From Bacillota bacterium (GTDB lineage Bacteria > Bacillota > Sulfobacillia > Fermentithermobacillales > Fermentithermobacillaceae): a stretch of DNA of 64,000 nt. Of this stretch, positions 23,847 to 36,581 are shown piece by piece (position 1 is the first letter of the stretch; every line of letters begins with the position of its first letter). Both the position numbers and the translations under genes were made by a program. Location: assembly GCA_040880305.1 (NCBI GenBank), contig JBBDIP010000044.1, positions 15,914 through 79,913 on the forward strand, in the 5' to 3' direction. The notes under the pieces were generated by a model that was not told the origin of the DNA, did not search any database, and worked only from the letters and a program-made list of their open reading frames with translations.

Positions 23847-25127
23847 TTCGGCCCTGGCCTCGCGGACCCGCTTCTTGATCTCCTCCGGGTCCTCCTGGTA
23901 GAGTCCCAAGTCCTTCATTCTGGTGAAGAACACGGATCCGGCGAACGTGTATGACGCGCCCAGGCCTTGTGACCCGGCGGCGGCCGGTCCGCCACCGGCG
24001 TCTACCGCGCACTGGGCGATGTAGTCGCCCGTCGCGAGGGATGGCGATATGGTGCACTCACGCTTCCCTTGGGCCTGTAGGCCGGCATTTCTGCCCGCCA
24101 AGGCCCCGGTCACGATGGCCTCGGTGTGGCCGACGCATATCCCTGCCCGCTCGCCTCCTACGTAAAGGTTCACCGCACCTTGGACCTTCATAGTCCTCTC
24201 TCTGGGCGACACCGCGGTGAGACGCACCGAGTTTCCCCTGCTGCCGCCCAGTGGGTCGGCGTATCTGGCGTCCTCCAGCCCGGGAAGGGTGCGCAGGTCC
24301 TCAACAGGGAAGTAGGGCGACATGAGTTTGGCGTGCCCGGTGTCCAAAAGCACGACCGAGTCCGCGTACTCAGGGAGCGCGTACTGCTGGCACACTTTGG
24401 TCTCGAGTTTCTTGGTGTTCACGAGCTTCTTGGGGAGGGGGATTACCACGACGCCCTTGGCCTCGAGTTCTTCCCTCACCGGCGCCGAGAGAGTCTCCTT
24501 GTAGATCTTGCACGACCCCGACATGGCGCCGTAGGAGCCCTTCCTCCTGGTGCACATGAACTCGGGCAGGGACAAGAGCGAGGTCAAGCTGACCCGTGGA
24601 CCAAAGGATGGGCAGCGCTGTATGCAGCAGGCGCACCCGTTTCCAAGCCTCTGGCACAGGCCGGGCGGGCCTGAGGACCCCGTGGTGTCCACGAAGGCGG
24701 CGGCCGAGTAGCTGTCGCCGTCCTCGGCCACGACCGCGGTAATGGCGCCAGAAGAGCTGCGCAACCCTGTGACCCGCTTGCCGAAGTAGAGCGCGATCCC
24801 CTTCTGTTGAAGCAGTCTCCTCACTTCGGGCTCTATCTTGAGCACGTCATAGAGGCTCGCGTGGATGTGGCCGGGGAAAGTGATCCCAGTGTGGCGCGAG
24901 AGCCGGTCCGTCAGCTGAAAGAGGTCACCGAACCCCATGGCGATGGCCTCTTCGGCGGCGGTGAACCGGCCGTTATTGCGCATGATCCCTCCGACCAGGC
25001 CTGCTCCCAGGAGCATATCGGTCCGCTCGCAGATCCCCACGTCAGAGCCGGCCGCGCGTGCGGCGAGAGCCGCGGAGACCCCGGCCCAGCCGCCGCCGAC
25101 CACCAGTACCTCATGATGTTTCTTCAA
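23829..25127 (-). CDS. FAD-dependent oxidoreductase with a Cys-rich insert
   Basis: N-terminal dinucleotide-binding motif VLVVGGGWAGVSAALAARAAG. The cysteine cluster is GNGCACCIQRCPSFG. The gene overlaps the 3' end of the ATPase by 18 nt on the opposite strand. Confidence 0.65.
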   Translation of the reverse strand: MKKHHEVLVVGGGWAGVSAALAARAAGSDVGICERTDMLLGAGLVGGIMRNNGRFTAAEEAIAMGFGDLFQLTDRLSRHTGITFPGHIHASLYDVLKIEPEVRRLLQQKGIALYFGKRVTGLRSSSGAITAVVAEDGDSYSAAAFVDTTGSSGPPGLCQRLGNGCACCIQRCPSFGPRVSLTSLLSLPEFMCTRRKGSYGAMSGSCKIYKETLSAPVREELEAKGVVVIPLPKKLVNTKKLETKVCQQYALPEYADSVVLLDTGHAKLMSPYFPVEDLRTLPGLEDARYADPLGGSRGNSVRLTAVSPRERTMKVQGAVNLYVGGERAGICVGHTEAIVTGALAGRNAGLQAQGKRECTISPSLATGDYIAQCAVDAGGGPAAAGSQGLGASYTFAGSVFFTRMKDLGLYQEDPEEIKKRVREARAESLFAT

Positions 25128-33520: not shown

Positions 33521-34240
33521 ATGGGGAAGCTGTACTTGGTCCGGCACGGCCGGACCGCTTGGAACAAGGGCGAGGTTTTTCGCGGCACGACCGATGTGCC
33601 GCTAGATGAGGTTGGGCGCGAACAGGCTAAGCTACTCGGTCGCGCTCTGTACGAGCAGGCACCGAACCCGATCACCGTCTTTTGCAGTCCTCTGTCGCGC
33701 GCAGCTGAGACTGCCAGGATTGTGTCGGATGCGTTTGGGCGCTACGAGACCTCCAAGACCTCCGATACCTCCGATACCTGCTCCATCCCTCGCCTCATCC
33801 CTCGGCCTATCCCTCTCCCTGACCTGCGGTTCACGGACATCGACGTCGGCGAGTGGAGCGGCATGGCTCTCACAGACGTTGAGACAAAGTATCCCGGACA
33901 GTACGACGCTTGGGTCAGGACCCCGCACCTCGTCAGGTTTCCGGGAGGACAAACCCTGCAGGAAGTCCAGGACCAGGCCTGGAATGGGGTGGAGTCCCTC
34001 GTCACTCTGGCTCGCGAAAACGACGTCATCCTGGTTTCGCACCGTCTCACTCTGAAGACGATTATCCTCAAAGCTGTTGGCGCGGGACTTGAGGACTTCT
34101 GGAGCATTCGCCTGGATACGGCGTCAATCAGCATCCTTGAGATGACAAGCAATGGCGGGGGACAAAGGTTGACCCTGTCAAGACTGAACGATGTGAGTCA
34201 TCTTGCCCAGATGAGACTGCCCGACAGGATCGACTTCTAG
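33521..34240 (+). CDS. Histidine phosphatase family protein carrying a low-complexity insertion encoded by DNA tandem repeats
   Basis: LYLVRHGRTAWNKGEVFRGTTDVPLDEVGREQA. The insertion TSKTSDTSDTCSIPRLIPRPIPLPDL is encoded by direct repeats (acctccgat x2, atccctcg x3). Confidence 0.75.
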   Translation: MGKLYLVRHGRTAWNKGEVFRGTTDVPLDEVGREQAKLLGRALYEQAPNPITVFCSPLSRAAETARIVSDAFGRYETSKTSDTSDTCSIPRLIPRPIPLPDLRFTDIDVGEWSGMALTDVETKYPGQYDAWVRTPHLVRFPGGQTLQEVQDQAWNGVESLVTLARENDVILVSHRLTLKTIILKAVGAGLEDFWSIRLDTASISILEMTSNGGGQRLTLSRLNDVSHLAQMRLPDRIDF

Positions 34241-34283
34241 CCTTCGACCGACTGCAACTATCGGGTGCGACCTCCTCGAGGGG

Positions 34284-34600
34284 TGCTAGTGCCCACGTGG
34301 TGGGCACTGGGGGCAGGATTCTGGTTCGCGAGAGGTATCAGTGCGAACGATATTTGCGCTGAGCGTCAGGTTCGGGCCTTTCTGAGGCTTCAGTGCCAAT
34401 CAGATAGGCACTGACTGCCGATTTCGAGCCTTTGAGAGACTTCAGTGCAAACCAGATTGGCACTGACCGTGCGTTTCAGGCCTTCGAGGAGTCTCAGTGC
34501 CAACCAGATTGGCACTGGCTTCCGATTTCGGGCTTTCGAGAGACTTCAGTGCCAACGAGATTGGCACTGACTGCCGATTCAGAGCCTTCGAGAGATTTCC
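34284..34600. repeat. Array of 6 tandem ~52-53 bp repeats (the 4 central copies well conserved), each containing an 8-9 bp perfect palindrome
   Basis: Units start near 34284, 34336, 34389, 34441, 34494 and 34546. The consensus is TTCAGTGCCAAnCAGATTGGCACTGACTGCCGATTTCGAGCCTTTGAGAGAC, with the hairpin AGTGCCAA-n5-TTGGCACT in each. The first two copies are degenerate (AGTGCCCACgtgGTGGGCACT, AGTGCGAAcgatatTTGCGCT). Confidence 0.7.
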
Positions 34601-34722
34601 GTGACGTAGTCACCGGGCACGGTGGACGCTCTCGCTATTCCTGTCAGCCGCTTCGCTGGCTGAGCGGAATCGCTTGCGCTTGCGGCAAGTCACCCTCCGG
34701 TTGACTTGCCCGGCTGACATGC

Positions 34723-36063
34723 CTAGCACGACACCCTTCTATCCAACGGGCATGCCCCGCCGCAAAGGGCCAGGTCCTCACAGGCCTTACACTTGTCGGG
34801 CAGCACCGGGAGGTCCGGGTGGTCCAGTGAGCCTACCTGACGGCGCTTGCGCAACGCCACTGCCAAAGGGTGCTGCCACATCTTTGGGAAGTCGTCGTTC
34901 ATCGCATTGCCCAAAGACTTGTAGTAGGACTGGCACGGCATGACGTTGCCGTCAGGCTCAACCGCGAGCACTGTGCTGGCGGCTGAACAGGTCTTGACTC
35001 CTAAACCCAGCGAGACAGGGTTGACGTCTTTGTAGCATGCGGGGGTGTACCAGATGAAGGGGAAGGCCAGGTCAGAACTGGTTTTCGTCACCTTATCCAG
35101 TAACAGCCGCAGCTCTGATGGCTCCACACCTGCGGCATCGGTGCCGCGCCCCGATCTGATCAGGGCGTTGATGCCGAACTTCTTGACGCCCAGAGACTGC
35201 GAAAACGGGATGGTCGGCAGGATGGTGCCCTTGTTGTCCTGTGTCACCGTGGTATTGGTCGTGGTATAGATGCGCTGTACGGCGTTCTTGATGCCGTCCA
35301 CCGTCTCTTGCCACGCTCCCAAAGAGCCGACCATGCGGTCGTGAACGTCCTTGTCGGAGGACTCTAGCGTTACCTGGGCGAAGTCCAGCCCAGCGTCGGC
35401 CAGGCTCGCAACTCGCTTCTCGGTGAGAAGCCTGCCGTTGGTGATGAGCCCGGTGATGCAGCCCAGGTCTTGGGCTTCCCGTAAGATTTCCTCAAGGTCT
35501 AATCGCAAAAGGGGCTCGCCGCCTGTGAACACCAAGGTGGGCACCCCCCAAGCCGCGAGTCTGCGGACGATGGATTTCCAGGATGAAGCGGGCAGTTGCG
35601 CTGACTCGTGGGGACCGCCCGCGTAGCAGTGGCCGCAGTTGTTTTGGCAGCGGTAGGTCAGGATCAGGTCGGTCCTGTACGGCGCAGTGAGTTCGACGGA
35701 CAGTGGGTCAATGCGCTTGACCTCGAAATCTGAGAACGGACAGGCTCCGCCGCTGGCCACGGAGATCACGGAGCTCCAAAGGCGCGTCCAGTCGGCTGAC
35801 GCGACCTCGCTTTGGACCTTGAACTTGCGTCTGACCCGTTTGACGATCCCAGGCGAGAGCGCGGGACCTGCGGCGAAGGGGTCGCCCAGGGCGGAGAAGC
35901 CCGTCTTGGCGGCGGCCTCCAGTTCAGCCATGAAGGAGTCGAAGTAGACCCTCGCCACCCGGTCCAAGAACAGCGCAGCCGAGGCGTTGACCACCAGGAC
36001 TCCGGTGCCGTCGGTTTCGCCTCGCAAGTGCAGTTTCAGGTCGCCTATCCGTGCTCTGTCCAA
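34723..36063 (-). CDS. Radical SAM / SPASM-domain protein (Cmo-like cofactor-modifying or peptide-maturase-type) with a ~115 aa N-terminal extension
   Basis: CQNNCGHCY is the CX3CX2C radical SAM motif. The C-terminal cysteines (CYKD...MPCQSYY...CKACEDLALCGGACP) fit a SPASM/twitch auxiliary cluster domain. It is divergent from the AOR operon. Confidence 0.8.
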   Translation of the reverse strand: MDRARIGDLKLHLRGETDGTGVLVVNASAALFLDRVARVYFDSFMAELEAAAKTGFSALGDPFAAGPALSPGIVKRVRRKFKVQSEVASADWTRLWSSVISVASGGACPFSDFEVKRIDPLSVELTAPYRTDLILTYRCQNNCGHCYAGGPHESAQLPASSWKSIVRRLAAWGVPTLVFTGGEPLLRLDLEEILREAQDLGCITGLITNGRLLTEKRVASLADAGLDFAQVTLESSDKDVHDRMVGSLGAWQETVDGIKNAVQRIYTTTNTTVTQDNKGTILPTIPFSQSLGVKKFGINALIRSGRGTDAAGVEPSELRLLLDKVTKTSSDLAFPFIWYTPACYKDVNPVSLGLGVKTCSAASTVLAVEPDGNVMPCQSYYKSLGNAMNDDFPKMWQHPLAVALRKRRQVGSLDHPDLPVLPDKCKACEDLALCGGACPLDRRVSC

Positions 36064-36178
36064 CAGGGGTCGCCTCCCACCGGCATTATATCAGAGGGAG
36101 CCGCCATACCCGGTTGCAGGGCGAGGGGCATGCCGCGTCGAATTTGCCAAGAGATATTCTCGATTGGAGGAGGAGCCA

Positions 36179-36319
36179 ATGAAGCTTTCCGCTCGCTCCG
36201 ACAGGTGCTCAGGCTGCAAGGTGTGCCTGCTCACTTGCGCGCTCACCAATTTTGGCTTGAACAACCCCAGATACGGAGCACTGGGCATAAGCGAGGTTCC
36301 CAGTGCCGGGAAAGTATGA
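36179..36319 (+). CDS. Small 4Fe-4S ferredoxin-motif peptide (46 aa), probably the 5' part of a polyferredoxin gene split by a frameshift
   Basis: A GGAGGAGG RBS lies 5 nt upstream. It contains one CxxCxxCxxxC motif (CSGCKVCLLTC). It overlaps the next ORF by 17 nt in a different frame. Confidence 0.5.
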   Translation: MKLSARSDRCSGCKVCLLTCALTNFGLNNPRYGALGISEVPSAGKV

Positions 36320-36581
36320 GGTCTTGGTTTGTACCAAGTGCGGCGCATGCCGGGACGTCTGCTCTGTCGGCGCCATAAAGGAGCAGGCCGATGGCTCGTT
36401 CAGGGTGGAGAGCGCGGAGTGCGTTGGGTGCGGTGTCTGCGTGGATGCATGCCCGCAGGAAGTGATTCGTTTCATCACCGAGAAGAATGTGGCGTTCGTC
36501 TGCCTCCACTGCGGCGAGTGCATCAAGTACTGCCCGCGGGAAGCGATCGTGGACGAGGATGGAGAGGTGAGGAGGGCATGA
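36303..36581 (+). CDS. 4Fe-4S ferredoxin (three CxxCxxCxxxC motifs)
   Basis: CTKCGACRDVC, CVGCGVCVDAC and CLHCGECIKYC. The stop overlaps the AOR start codon (ATGA). Confidence 0.7.
   Translation: MPGKYEVLVCTKCGACRDVCSVGAIKEQADGSFRVESAECVGCGVCVDACPQEVIRFITEKNVAFVCLHCGECIKYCPREAIVDEDGEVRRA

Follow-up and report, generated by a model that had tools for sequence, protein, structure and literature searches.

The gap between the stop codons of two convergent genes in the 64,000-nucleotide stretch analysed here (hereafter, the window) measures 482 bp (34241-34722) and contains a row of palindromes. This raises the question of what kind of element the row represents and of how it came to lie where two genes end. 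A first-pass annotation of the same DNA had described six tandem hairpin units in a convergent intergenic region. TRF, a scan for the hairpin pattern and Pfam assignments of the flanking genes all bear this description out. The two genes that border the gap are the following.

33521..34240 (+): gene of a histidine phosphatase (His_Phos_1; Pfam, E=1e-47)
34723..36063 (-): gene of a radical-SAM enzyme (Radical_SAM and SPASM; Pfam and homologues), convergent with the phosphatase gene

The phosphatase has the C-terminus LPDRIDF, and its TAG stop codon (34238-34240) borders the array. According to Pfam, the immediate neighbours encode BacA, YkuD, the phosphatase, the radical-SAM protein, a ferredoxin and AFOR.

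The array runs from 34287 to 34598 and consists of six head-to-tail units, all in one orientation, each of exactly 52 bp without any indel. The limits first proposed (34284-34600) and the period of 52-53 bp are corrected accordingly. TRF reports a period of 52 over 34371-34603 (4.5 copies, 79% matches, score 280). When the pattern CAGTGCCAA-N5-TTGGCACTG was scanned against the 64-kb window with up to 3 mismatches allowed, a search for which 0.02 matches are expected by chance, six matches were found, at 34287, 34339, 34391, 34443, 34495 and 34547, and nothing in the window outside the array. Repeat finding led to the identical 52-bp register. In each unit a stem-loop of 23 nt precedes a spacer of 29 nt, the hairpins continuing into ACTGCCGA or GGGGCAGG. 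The units and the sequence that follows them can be described as follows.

34287..34338 (+): unit 1, hairpin TAGTGCCCAC-GTG-GTGGGCACTG, 10-bp stem, -15.8 kcal/mol; diverged spacer, 48% identical to the consensus
34339..34390 (+): unit 2, hairpin CAGTGCGAA-CGATA-TTTGCGCTG; spacer identity to the consensus 0.62
34391..34442 (+): unit 3, A:A mismatch at pair 8:16; spacer 97% identical to the consensus
34443..34494 (+): unit 4, A:G mismatch at pair 7:17; spacer 59% identical to the consensus
34495..34546 (+): unit 5, hairpin CAGTGCCAA-CCAGA-TTGGCACTG, perfect 9-bp stem, -12.6 kcal/mol
34547..34598 (+): unit 6, the final unit, perfect 9-bp stem; the end of a related contig (L022, see below) falls inside it
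34599..34722: right flank, unique sequence, common to an allele without the array (L080, see below)

The predicted stability of the hairpins varies across units from -6.7 to -17.4 kcal/mol. Perfect stems of 9-10 bp are found only in units 1, 5 and 6, and for these the initial description of a perfect palindrome in every unit holds. It does not extend to units 3 and 4, which carry one mismatch each, nor to unit 2, in which 9/9 pairs are formed only if two G:U are allowed, on the + strand (-9.5 kcal/mol, as compared with -3.2 on the - strand). Two further palindromes are present in the right flank: GTGACGTAGTCAC at 34601-34613 and a hairpin with 12-bp arms at 34684-34710, directly after the stop codon of the radical-SAM gene.

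Regularly spaced short palindromic repeats are reminiscent of a CRISPR array. However, as the first-pass annotation had already recognised, the 29-nt segments between the hairpins share homology with one another (mean pairwise identity 58%; as much as 97% with the consensus). Moreover, units 1-4 have degenerate repeats, 52 bp is a short period, and the spacers also resemble the end of the adjacent gene. A CRISPR array was therefore rejected.

Information on the evolution of the array comes from orthologous loci, which were reached via homologues of both flanking proteins, the exact radical-SAM and phosphatase proteins of the window being without a database record. Four of these loci belong to the same species as the window, and the host of these alleles is an uncultured Bacillota, which is also represented in the ENA analyses ERZ27297438, ERZ27297441 and ERZ27297473 and in run ERR6862850.

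L022: conspecific, 98.3% nucleotide identity to the window; contig ends within the last unit
L078: conspecific, 8 units
L079: conspecific, 6 units, as in the window
L080: conspecific, no array, 179-bp gap between the two genes

The array is found in the independent assemblies L078, L079 and L022, which excludes an assembly artefact. The comparison of copy number across strains, which had been recommended at the outset, gives 0 units (L080), 6 units (L079 and the window) or 8 units (L078) within the species. Unit length is exactly 52 in 20/20 units of three alleles. Between L078 and L079, about 2.3 kb of flank are 99-100% identical, and the arrays differ by two units and by SNPs in the hairpins. 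Copy number thus changes while the flanks do not, which is the behaviour of a VNTR or minisatellite. The two extra units of L078 are identical to each other and, read by eye, seem to be chimeras of neighbouring unit types, as would result from unequal exchange or slippage.

The allele without the array deserves closer description. The outer flanks of L080 are 97.8-98.5% identical to those of the window, whereas the region corresponding to 31.9-34.3 kb of the window is only 80-94% identical, and this divergent allele block stops at the array site. Both immediate flanks of the array are present in L080, with about 22 unrelated nucleotides where the array sits. The best match of this filler to the unit, 11/13 at the junction of the 3' arm and the spacer, is not significant. 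Judging from the alignment, L080 could represent either the ancestral empty site or a deletion. More distant lineages were also compared at the same locus.

L023: 70-bp gap, no array
L024: gap of -4 bp (the genes overlap), no array
L076: gap of -4 bp (the genes overlap), no array
L088: 19-bp gap, no array
L025-L027: phosphatase gene missing; 19 bp from the radical-SAM gene to the YkuD gene, no array
L077: 331-bp gap holding a different palindrome array (15-nt quasi-palindromes)

Among all the loci compared, only one allele lineage, within a single species, has the array. A local duplication that is not conserved in relatives, which the first-pass annotation had named as the outcome that would speak against it, is essentially what this comparison of loci shows. 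No homology was found between the gap of the window and the 331-bp gap of L077. The presence of another palindrome array at the same site in L077 could mean that the site favours or needs such arrays, an observation that weighs against a plain minisatellite.

Overall, the locus has 52-bp head-to-tail units, within the 10-100 bp that characterise minisatellites, occurs with 0, 6 or 8 copies, and has flanks that are colinear with the array-less L080 and show no mobile-element ends. It can be proposed, with a probability of about 70%, that the array is a young, fast-evolving VNTR minisatellite that originated on site, in the 3' flank of the phosphatase gene. By analogy, its closest counterparts are bacterial intergenic minisatellites, such as ETR-F and the MIRUs. 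VNTR3239/ETR-F of M. tuberculosis consists of 55/79-bp repeats in the rnc-fpg1 gap, is found only in the M. tuberculosis complex and varies in copy number between strains; the gap measures 279-358 bp in the tuberculosis complex, as compared with 6-54 bp in other mycobacteria (PMC2734929). MIRUs, as summarised in the same source after the original descriptions, are units of 40-100 bp present at 41 loci per genome, inside operons between co-directional genes (PMC2734929, citing Supply et al. 1997, 2000). The array shares with these systems head-to-tail units of about 50 bp, a gap of a few bp in related species and copies that vary between isolates. It also begins, as they do, near the upstream stop codon and has spurious ORFs annotated across it. 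Unlike the MIRUs, the array is known from one locus only, as far as the 64-kb window and the related loci are concerned, and it belongs to a member of the Bacillota rather than to a mycobacterium. Its genes are convergent, and where MIRUs overlap stop and start codons, here it is just a spacer-like segment that extends over the upstream stop codon. Finally, in contrast to both ETR-F and MIRUs, each unit of the array has a strong palindrome with a 9-bp stem, which is kept better than the rest of the unit.

The spacer-like segment at the stop codon raises the possibility that the unit was derived from the end of the phosphatase gene.

34231..34256 (+): 'unit 0', CGACTTCTAGCCTTCGACCGACTGCA, comprising the last three codons of the phosphatase gene, TAG and the first 16 nt 3' of the gene

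This segment is identical to the consensus spacer CGATTTCGAGCCTTCGAGAGACTTCA at 21/26 positions. Its local alignment score of 27 exceeds the maximum obtained with 500 shuffles (22) and with 462 other segments of the window (21). In addition, it is the sole match to the consensus spacer outside the array with up to 7 mismatches in 64 kb (expected number 0.025). The homology is strong in the window allele only. In the other alleles, a 14/16 core of the gene-end match is borderline in L080 (reached in 1/300 shuffles) and not significant in L078 (20/300), and the match of the gene end to the unit is marginal by nhmmer. Relatives have the C-terminus LPDRIDF without variation, whether or not they carry the array. 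From its invariance in array-less relatives it follows that the gene end is the ancestral sequence, of which the spacer would be a derived copy. On these alignments, an origin of the array in situ from the phosphatase gene end is probable, not proven. The spacers show a gradient of decay, those of the gene-proximal units 1 and 2 being the most diverged from the consensus (0.48 and 0.62) and those of the distal units the most uniform (0.86 and 0.90).

The phosphatase gene itself holds an in-frame tandem-repeat insertion at about 33745-33815 (TRF periods 9 and 12), some 500 bp from the array and in the same allele lineage. This insertion encodes 22-26 residues, is polymorphic in length and is found neither in L080 nor in distant relatives. 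A second repeat insertion of this kind, inside the phosphatase gene, suggests a local history of slippage.

Within the minisatellite reading, the following scenario can be proposed. The last codons of the phosphatase gene, its stop codon and its 3' flank, together with a GC-rich palindrome, would have undergone head-to-tail duplication and been shortened to 52 bp. Units would later have been gained and lost by replication slippage or by unequal exchange between units, slippage being presumably favoured by palindromes able to form hairpins. The arms could have stayed paired through neutral processes, in which units with good hairpins amplify and undergo intrastrand template-switch repair, or through weak selection. 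As regards age, units 1, 2 and 4 have spacers that seem too diverged for the array to be younger than the 98%-identical conspecific. The array may be as old as the adjoining divergent allele block (80-94% identical to L080).

The hairpin is the part of the unit that is kept best, with a mean pairwise identity of 0.86 in the arms as compared with 0.58 in the spacers; that of the loops is 0.61. Variable columns amount to 7/18 in the arms and 25/29 in the spacers (Fisher p=0.0012), and in each arm the six outer base pairs hardly vary. Paired cells make up 94.4% of the stems, as compared with 18-33% in slid registers, and two pairs show a compensatory change, from A:U to C:G in unit 1 and from C:G to G:U in unit 2. 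The full pairing of unit 2 through two G:U, possible only in RNA of the + strand, is the same in all three alleles. Moreover, both strands of the complete intergenic region give better folds than shuffled sequences do (z = -5.6 and -4.8). Together with the different palindrome array that L077 has in the same convergent gap, these features speak for a newly evolved functional RNA element, formed by stem-loops in the 3' UTR of the phosphatase gene or by a small RNA derived from this 3' UTR, and selected as a transcript stabiliser or as an insulator of the convergent genes. REP/BIME stem-loops are thought to stabilise transcripts or to insulate in a similar way.

Several observations nevertheless make such an RNA element rather unlikely. 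The array is missing in the conspecific L080 and in five other lineages, in two of which the genes overlap; where present, it has either 6 or 8 copies, and the loops are poorly kept. At least four variants that break the stem are tolerated (A:A, A:G, A:C). The strands are in conflict, since unit 2 favours the + strand, whereas the variant CCAGACTGG of L078 and L022 favours the - strand, giving an A:C mismatch on the former and a G:U pair on the latter. Good folding z-scores on both strands are, for their part, expected of any palindrome-containing sequence.

Searches for RNA signals point in the same direction. The Rfam check that had been recommended returned nothing meaningful: at gathering thresholds the entire window had no match, and a search of 34000-34900 with permissive settings gave only eukaryotic families (miRNA, snoRNA, lncRNA region) with E=0.24-3.3. 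No sigma-70-like promoter was found in 34241-34722. Neither was an intrinsic terminator, with a hairpin followed by a U-tract, found in this interval, in a scan that says little about the terminators of this organism, terminator-like sites being at chance level across 20 kb. With no Rfam match, no promoter- or terminator-like site, variable loops and conservation in a single species, the structured small RNA proposed in the first-pass annotation loses its support. Since the array has no promoter- or terminator-like site of its own, any transcript of it would have to be the 3' tail of the phosphatase mRNA or a product of read-through from the radical-SAM gene. Such a transcript would fold into successive stem-loops of -7 to -17 kcal/mol, and these could, as a side effect, delay 3' exonucleases or act as a buffer in convergent transcription.

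The conservation of the arms, the compensatory pairs and the constant 52 bp can be accounted for equally well by selection on structure or phase and by neutral processes. One neutral route has been documented, namely template switching, by which perfect stems are created and maintained and by which apparently compensatory changes arise (PMC8794818, PMC7202029). Such quasipalindrome, or template-switch, mutagenesis produces double changes in one event and matches the finding of arms that stay paired in a decaying array. It is a mutational process and not an element family, and we only infer its action at this array. A selective counterpart can also be formulated. The array could be a newborn row of functional stem-loops, selected both for pairing and for exact 52-nt phasing and serving to insulate or stabilise the two convergent transcript ends, the L077 array then being an independent solution; in our estimate this is decidedly unlikely.

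Constant spacing is also what phased sites for a dimeric DNA-binding protein would display. In the arrays of plasmid centromeres and iterons, binding sites lie on one face of the helix, and 23-bp palindromes repeated every 52 bp, about 5 helical turns, would be placed likewise. The exactness of the 52-bp spacing in every unit despite the divergence of the spacers, as well as the near invariance of the outer six bp of the arms, would fit such an arrangement. However, the half-sites of units 1 and 2 change by compensatory substitutions, which keep the pairing and not the sequence that a protein would read. The array lies between two 3' ends, with nothing to regulate; it is missing in the conspecific L080, varies in copy number and is without a second site of this kind in the 64 kb. 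The immediate neighbours included no gene seen to serve partition, replication or regulation. The phased protein-binding array suggested in the first-pass annotation is thus very improbable. More specifically, an iteron or centromere array was rejected for want of a cognate rep or par gene among the neighbours, because the half-sites covary and because no plasmid similarity was found, and a replication origin or terminus was rejected since the GC skew is uniformly positive along the window. The TTGGCAC of the 3' arm resembles the -24 box of sigma-54 promoters, but the spacing is wrong for TGGCAC-N5-TTGC. Among the units, this motif is matched only by unit 4, with 1 mismatch, and the window contains 6 matches where 4.2 are expected.

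A coding function was considered as well. A coding repeat, or a RiPP precursor for the SPASM enzyme, was rejected, 52 not being a multiple of 3 and one stop occurring per 156 nt on both strands. The ORFs of the array have 41 codons and overlap in three frames, without an SD motif upstream of their starts and without a Pfam match. The two-unit difference in length between alleles (104 nt) would shift the ORF frame.

The remaining question is whether the array belongs to a dispersed family, of the REP/BIME or MITE type, with other copies beyond the window. REP/BIME elements of Enterobacteria and Pseudomonas are GC-rich imperfect palindromes found in 3' intergenic positions, often between convergent genes, and can act in RNA as a barrier to 3' exonucleases. 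REPs occur in tens to hundreds of dispersed copies, alternate in orientation within BIMEs and are linked to RAYT transposases. The GC-rich imperfect palindromes of the array, located in a gap between convergent genes as is typical of REPs, would be in keeping with such a family. Unlike REP/BIME elements, the array is present at a single locus in the sequence searched, has one orientation instead of the alternating ones of BIMEs, and has homologous 29-nt spacers. A MITE would not be without precedent either, minisatellites inside MITEs having been documented (PMC4596501). BrickBuilt, a MITE of Porphyromonas gingivalis, is made of 23-nt units without spacers, has a leader and a tail ended by inverted repeats, occurs in 19 copies per genome and has promoter activity (PMC4596501). 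It resembles the array as a species-specific, intergenic, short tandem unit with predicted secondary structure, but its other traits were not seen in the array.

Searches for further copies were negative. Apart from the array, an HMM of the unit, run without filters, found nothing in either the 64-kb window or 11 related loci, and the 12.6 kb of L080 likewise yielded no copy. A scan for the hairpin in 185,579 species genomes (GTDB, one per species) gave 21 singletons from unrelated taxa, which can be read as about chance level; BLAST of these singletons revealed no similarity beyond the 23-mer. The same scan gave only 47 singletons in JGI metagenomes and only 7 in IMG/VR. No match was obtained by blastn against plasmid and phage collections. 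When 5.8 billion predicted proteins, a set that reaches ENA/Logan assemblies, were searched with the spurious ORF of the L078 array, only the self match was recovered. It should be noted that the window's own array was not returned by the scans of genomes and of JGI metagenomes, so that these exclude a widespread family and do not cover dispersal within this genome, in which the search for copies extends over 64 kb. No TIR or TSD was seen at the junctions by comparison with L080, the flanks are colinear with those of this allele, and the spacer resembles the adjacent gene end. A MITE was rejected on these grounds and on the absence of further copies in the collections searched. The REP- or MITE-like family put forward initially, for which no further copy appeared in the window, the related loci or the genome, metagenome, viral, plasmid and phage collections, must therefore be regarded as an improbable explanation.

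The minisatellite reading has practical consequences. The array lends itself well to strain typing in this uncultured Bacillota population. It also calls for caution, as at least one short-read contig (L022) breaks off in it and a spurious 103-aa 'gene' was produced by it in L078; more generally, arrays of this type can pass for CRISPRs or for genes of small RNAs. The alleles with 0, 6 and 8 units document an array of strong hairpins arising from local sequence, probably including the region of a stop codon. The persistence of paired arms while the rest of the unit decays bears on the question of whether compensatory-looking changes are proof of selection or can reflect template-switch repair. 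If a function were established, the locus would provide an example of the de novo birth of a structured 3' element. Should the array indeed be such a newborn element, its 0-, 6- and 8-unit alleles would constitute a natural experiment on how non-coding structure emerges from the 3' end of a gene.

Comparison with L080, a conspecific contig that lacks the array, shows that the six head-to-tail 52-bp repeats (window 34287-34598) stand at the end of a block that diverges between the two sequences. On both outer sides, L080 and the window share 97.8-98.5% identity, but only 80-94% across window 31.9-34.28 kb, which holds BacA, YkuD and the phosphatase gene. This pattern suggests that window 31.9-34.28 kb is a recombined allele block, the boundary of which coincides with the array. 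The relationship of the window to L078 and L079, conspecific contigs with arrays of eight and six units, is a mosaic as well, with 91-100% identity per 200 bp.

The phosphatase gene (33521-34240) itself carries in-frame tandem repeats with periods of 9 and 12, at window 33745-33815, the product of which is the low-complexity insert TSKTSDTSDTCSIPRLIPRPIPLP. The encoded protein has 239 aa in the window and 235 aa in L078 and L079; L080 encodes a version of 213 aa, and distant relatives encode versions of 217-219 aa. The insert is restricted to the allele lineage bearing the 52-bp array. It is a second tandem-repeat locus with length polymorphism, about 500 bp from the array.

Two inverted-repeat features lie on the radical-SAM side of the array:

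Window 34601-34613: palindrome GTGACGTAGTCAC, adjoining the 3' side of the last 52-bp unit.
Window 34684-34710: hairpin with 12-bp arms, GGCAAGTCACCC-tcc-GGTTGACTTGCC, adjoining the radical-SAM stop codon.

The hairpin behind the radical-SAM stop codon lacks a U-tract. In L080, the 3' arm of this hairpin is tandemly duplicated (ggttgacttgcccggttgacttgcccgg). On the other side of the array, just past the phosphatase stop codon (34247-34256), the window reads GACCGACTG where L078, L079 and L080 read GGGCGGCGG. The 29-nt segment between the hairpins of successive units (GAGAGACTT) is more like the former than the latter. The window variant may reflect conversion, with the array having overwritten a short tract of the adjoining flank.

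Between window positions 24001 and 44000, terminator-like sites (canonical hairpin followed by a T-tract) numbered 17 for 15.1 expected, and sigma-70-like promoters 3 for 2.9 expected. Both counts are at chance level, so scanning with simple consensus patterns is uninformative in this Bacillota lineage of about 61% GC. In the public assembly of L078, a 103-aa gene (P0149) is annotated over the array (2473-2784). Because its sole homologue among 5.8 billion proteins is itself, P0149 is a spurious ORF generated by the repeat.

Further along the window, at about 36290, two base pairs (CA) are deleted relative to the conspecific contigs L080 and L022. The deletion shifts the frame of a 134-aa 4Fe-4S ferredoxin gene (36177-36581) located upstream of the aldehyde:ferredoxin oxidoreductase gene, leaving only a 92-codon ORF from 36303. 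Either the gene is a pseudogene in the strain of the window, or the deletion is an assembly error.

In L077, a contig from a more distant lineage (81% radical-SAM identity), the orthologous gap, where 331 bp separate the radical-SAM gene from the phosphatase gene, carries another, degenerate array (1119-1350). Its unit is a 15-nt quasi-palindrome, GTCAC-N3-ATGACCA, present in at least six direct copies, together with inverted copies, at a spacing of 29-33 bp. No sequence similarity was found between this gap and that of the window. It looks as if palindrome arrays had emerged independently in one and the same convergent gap.
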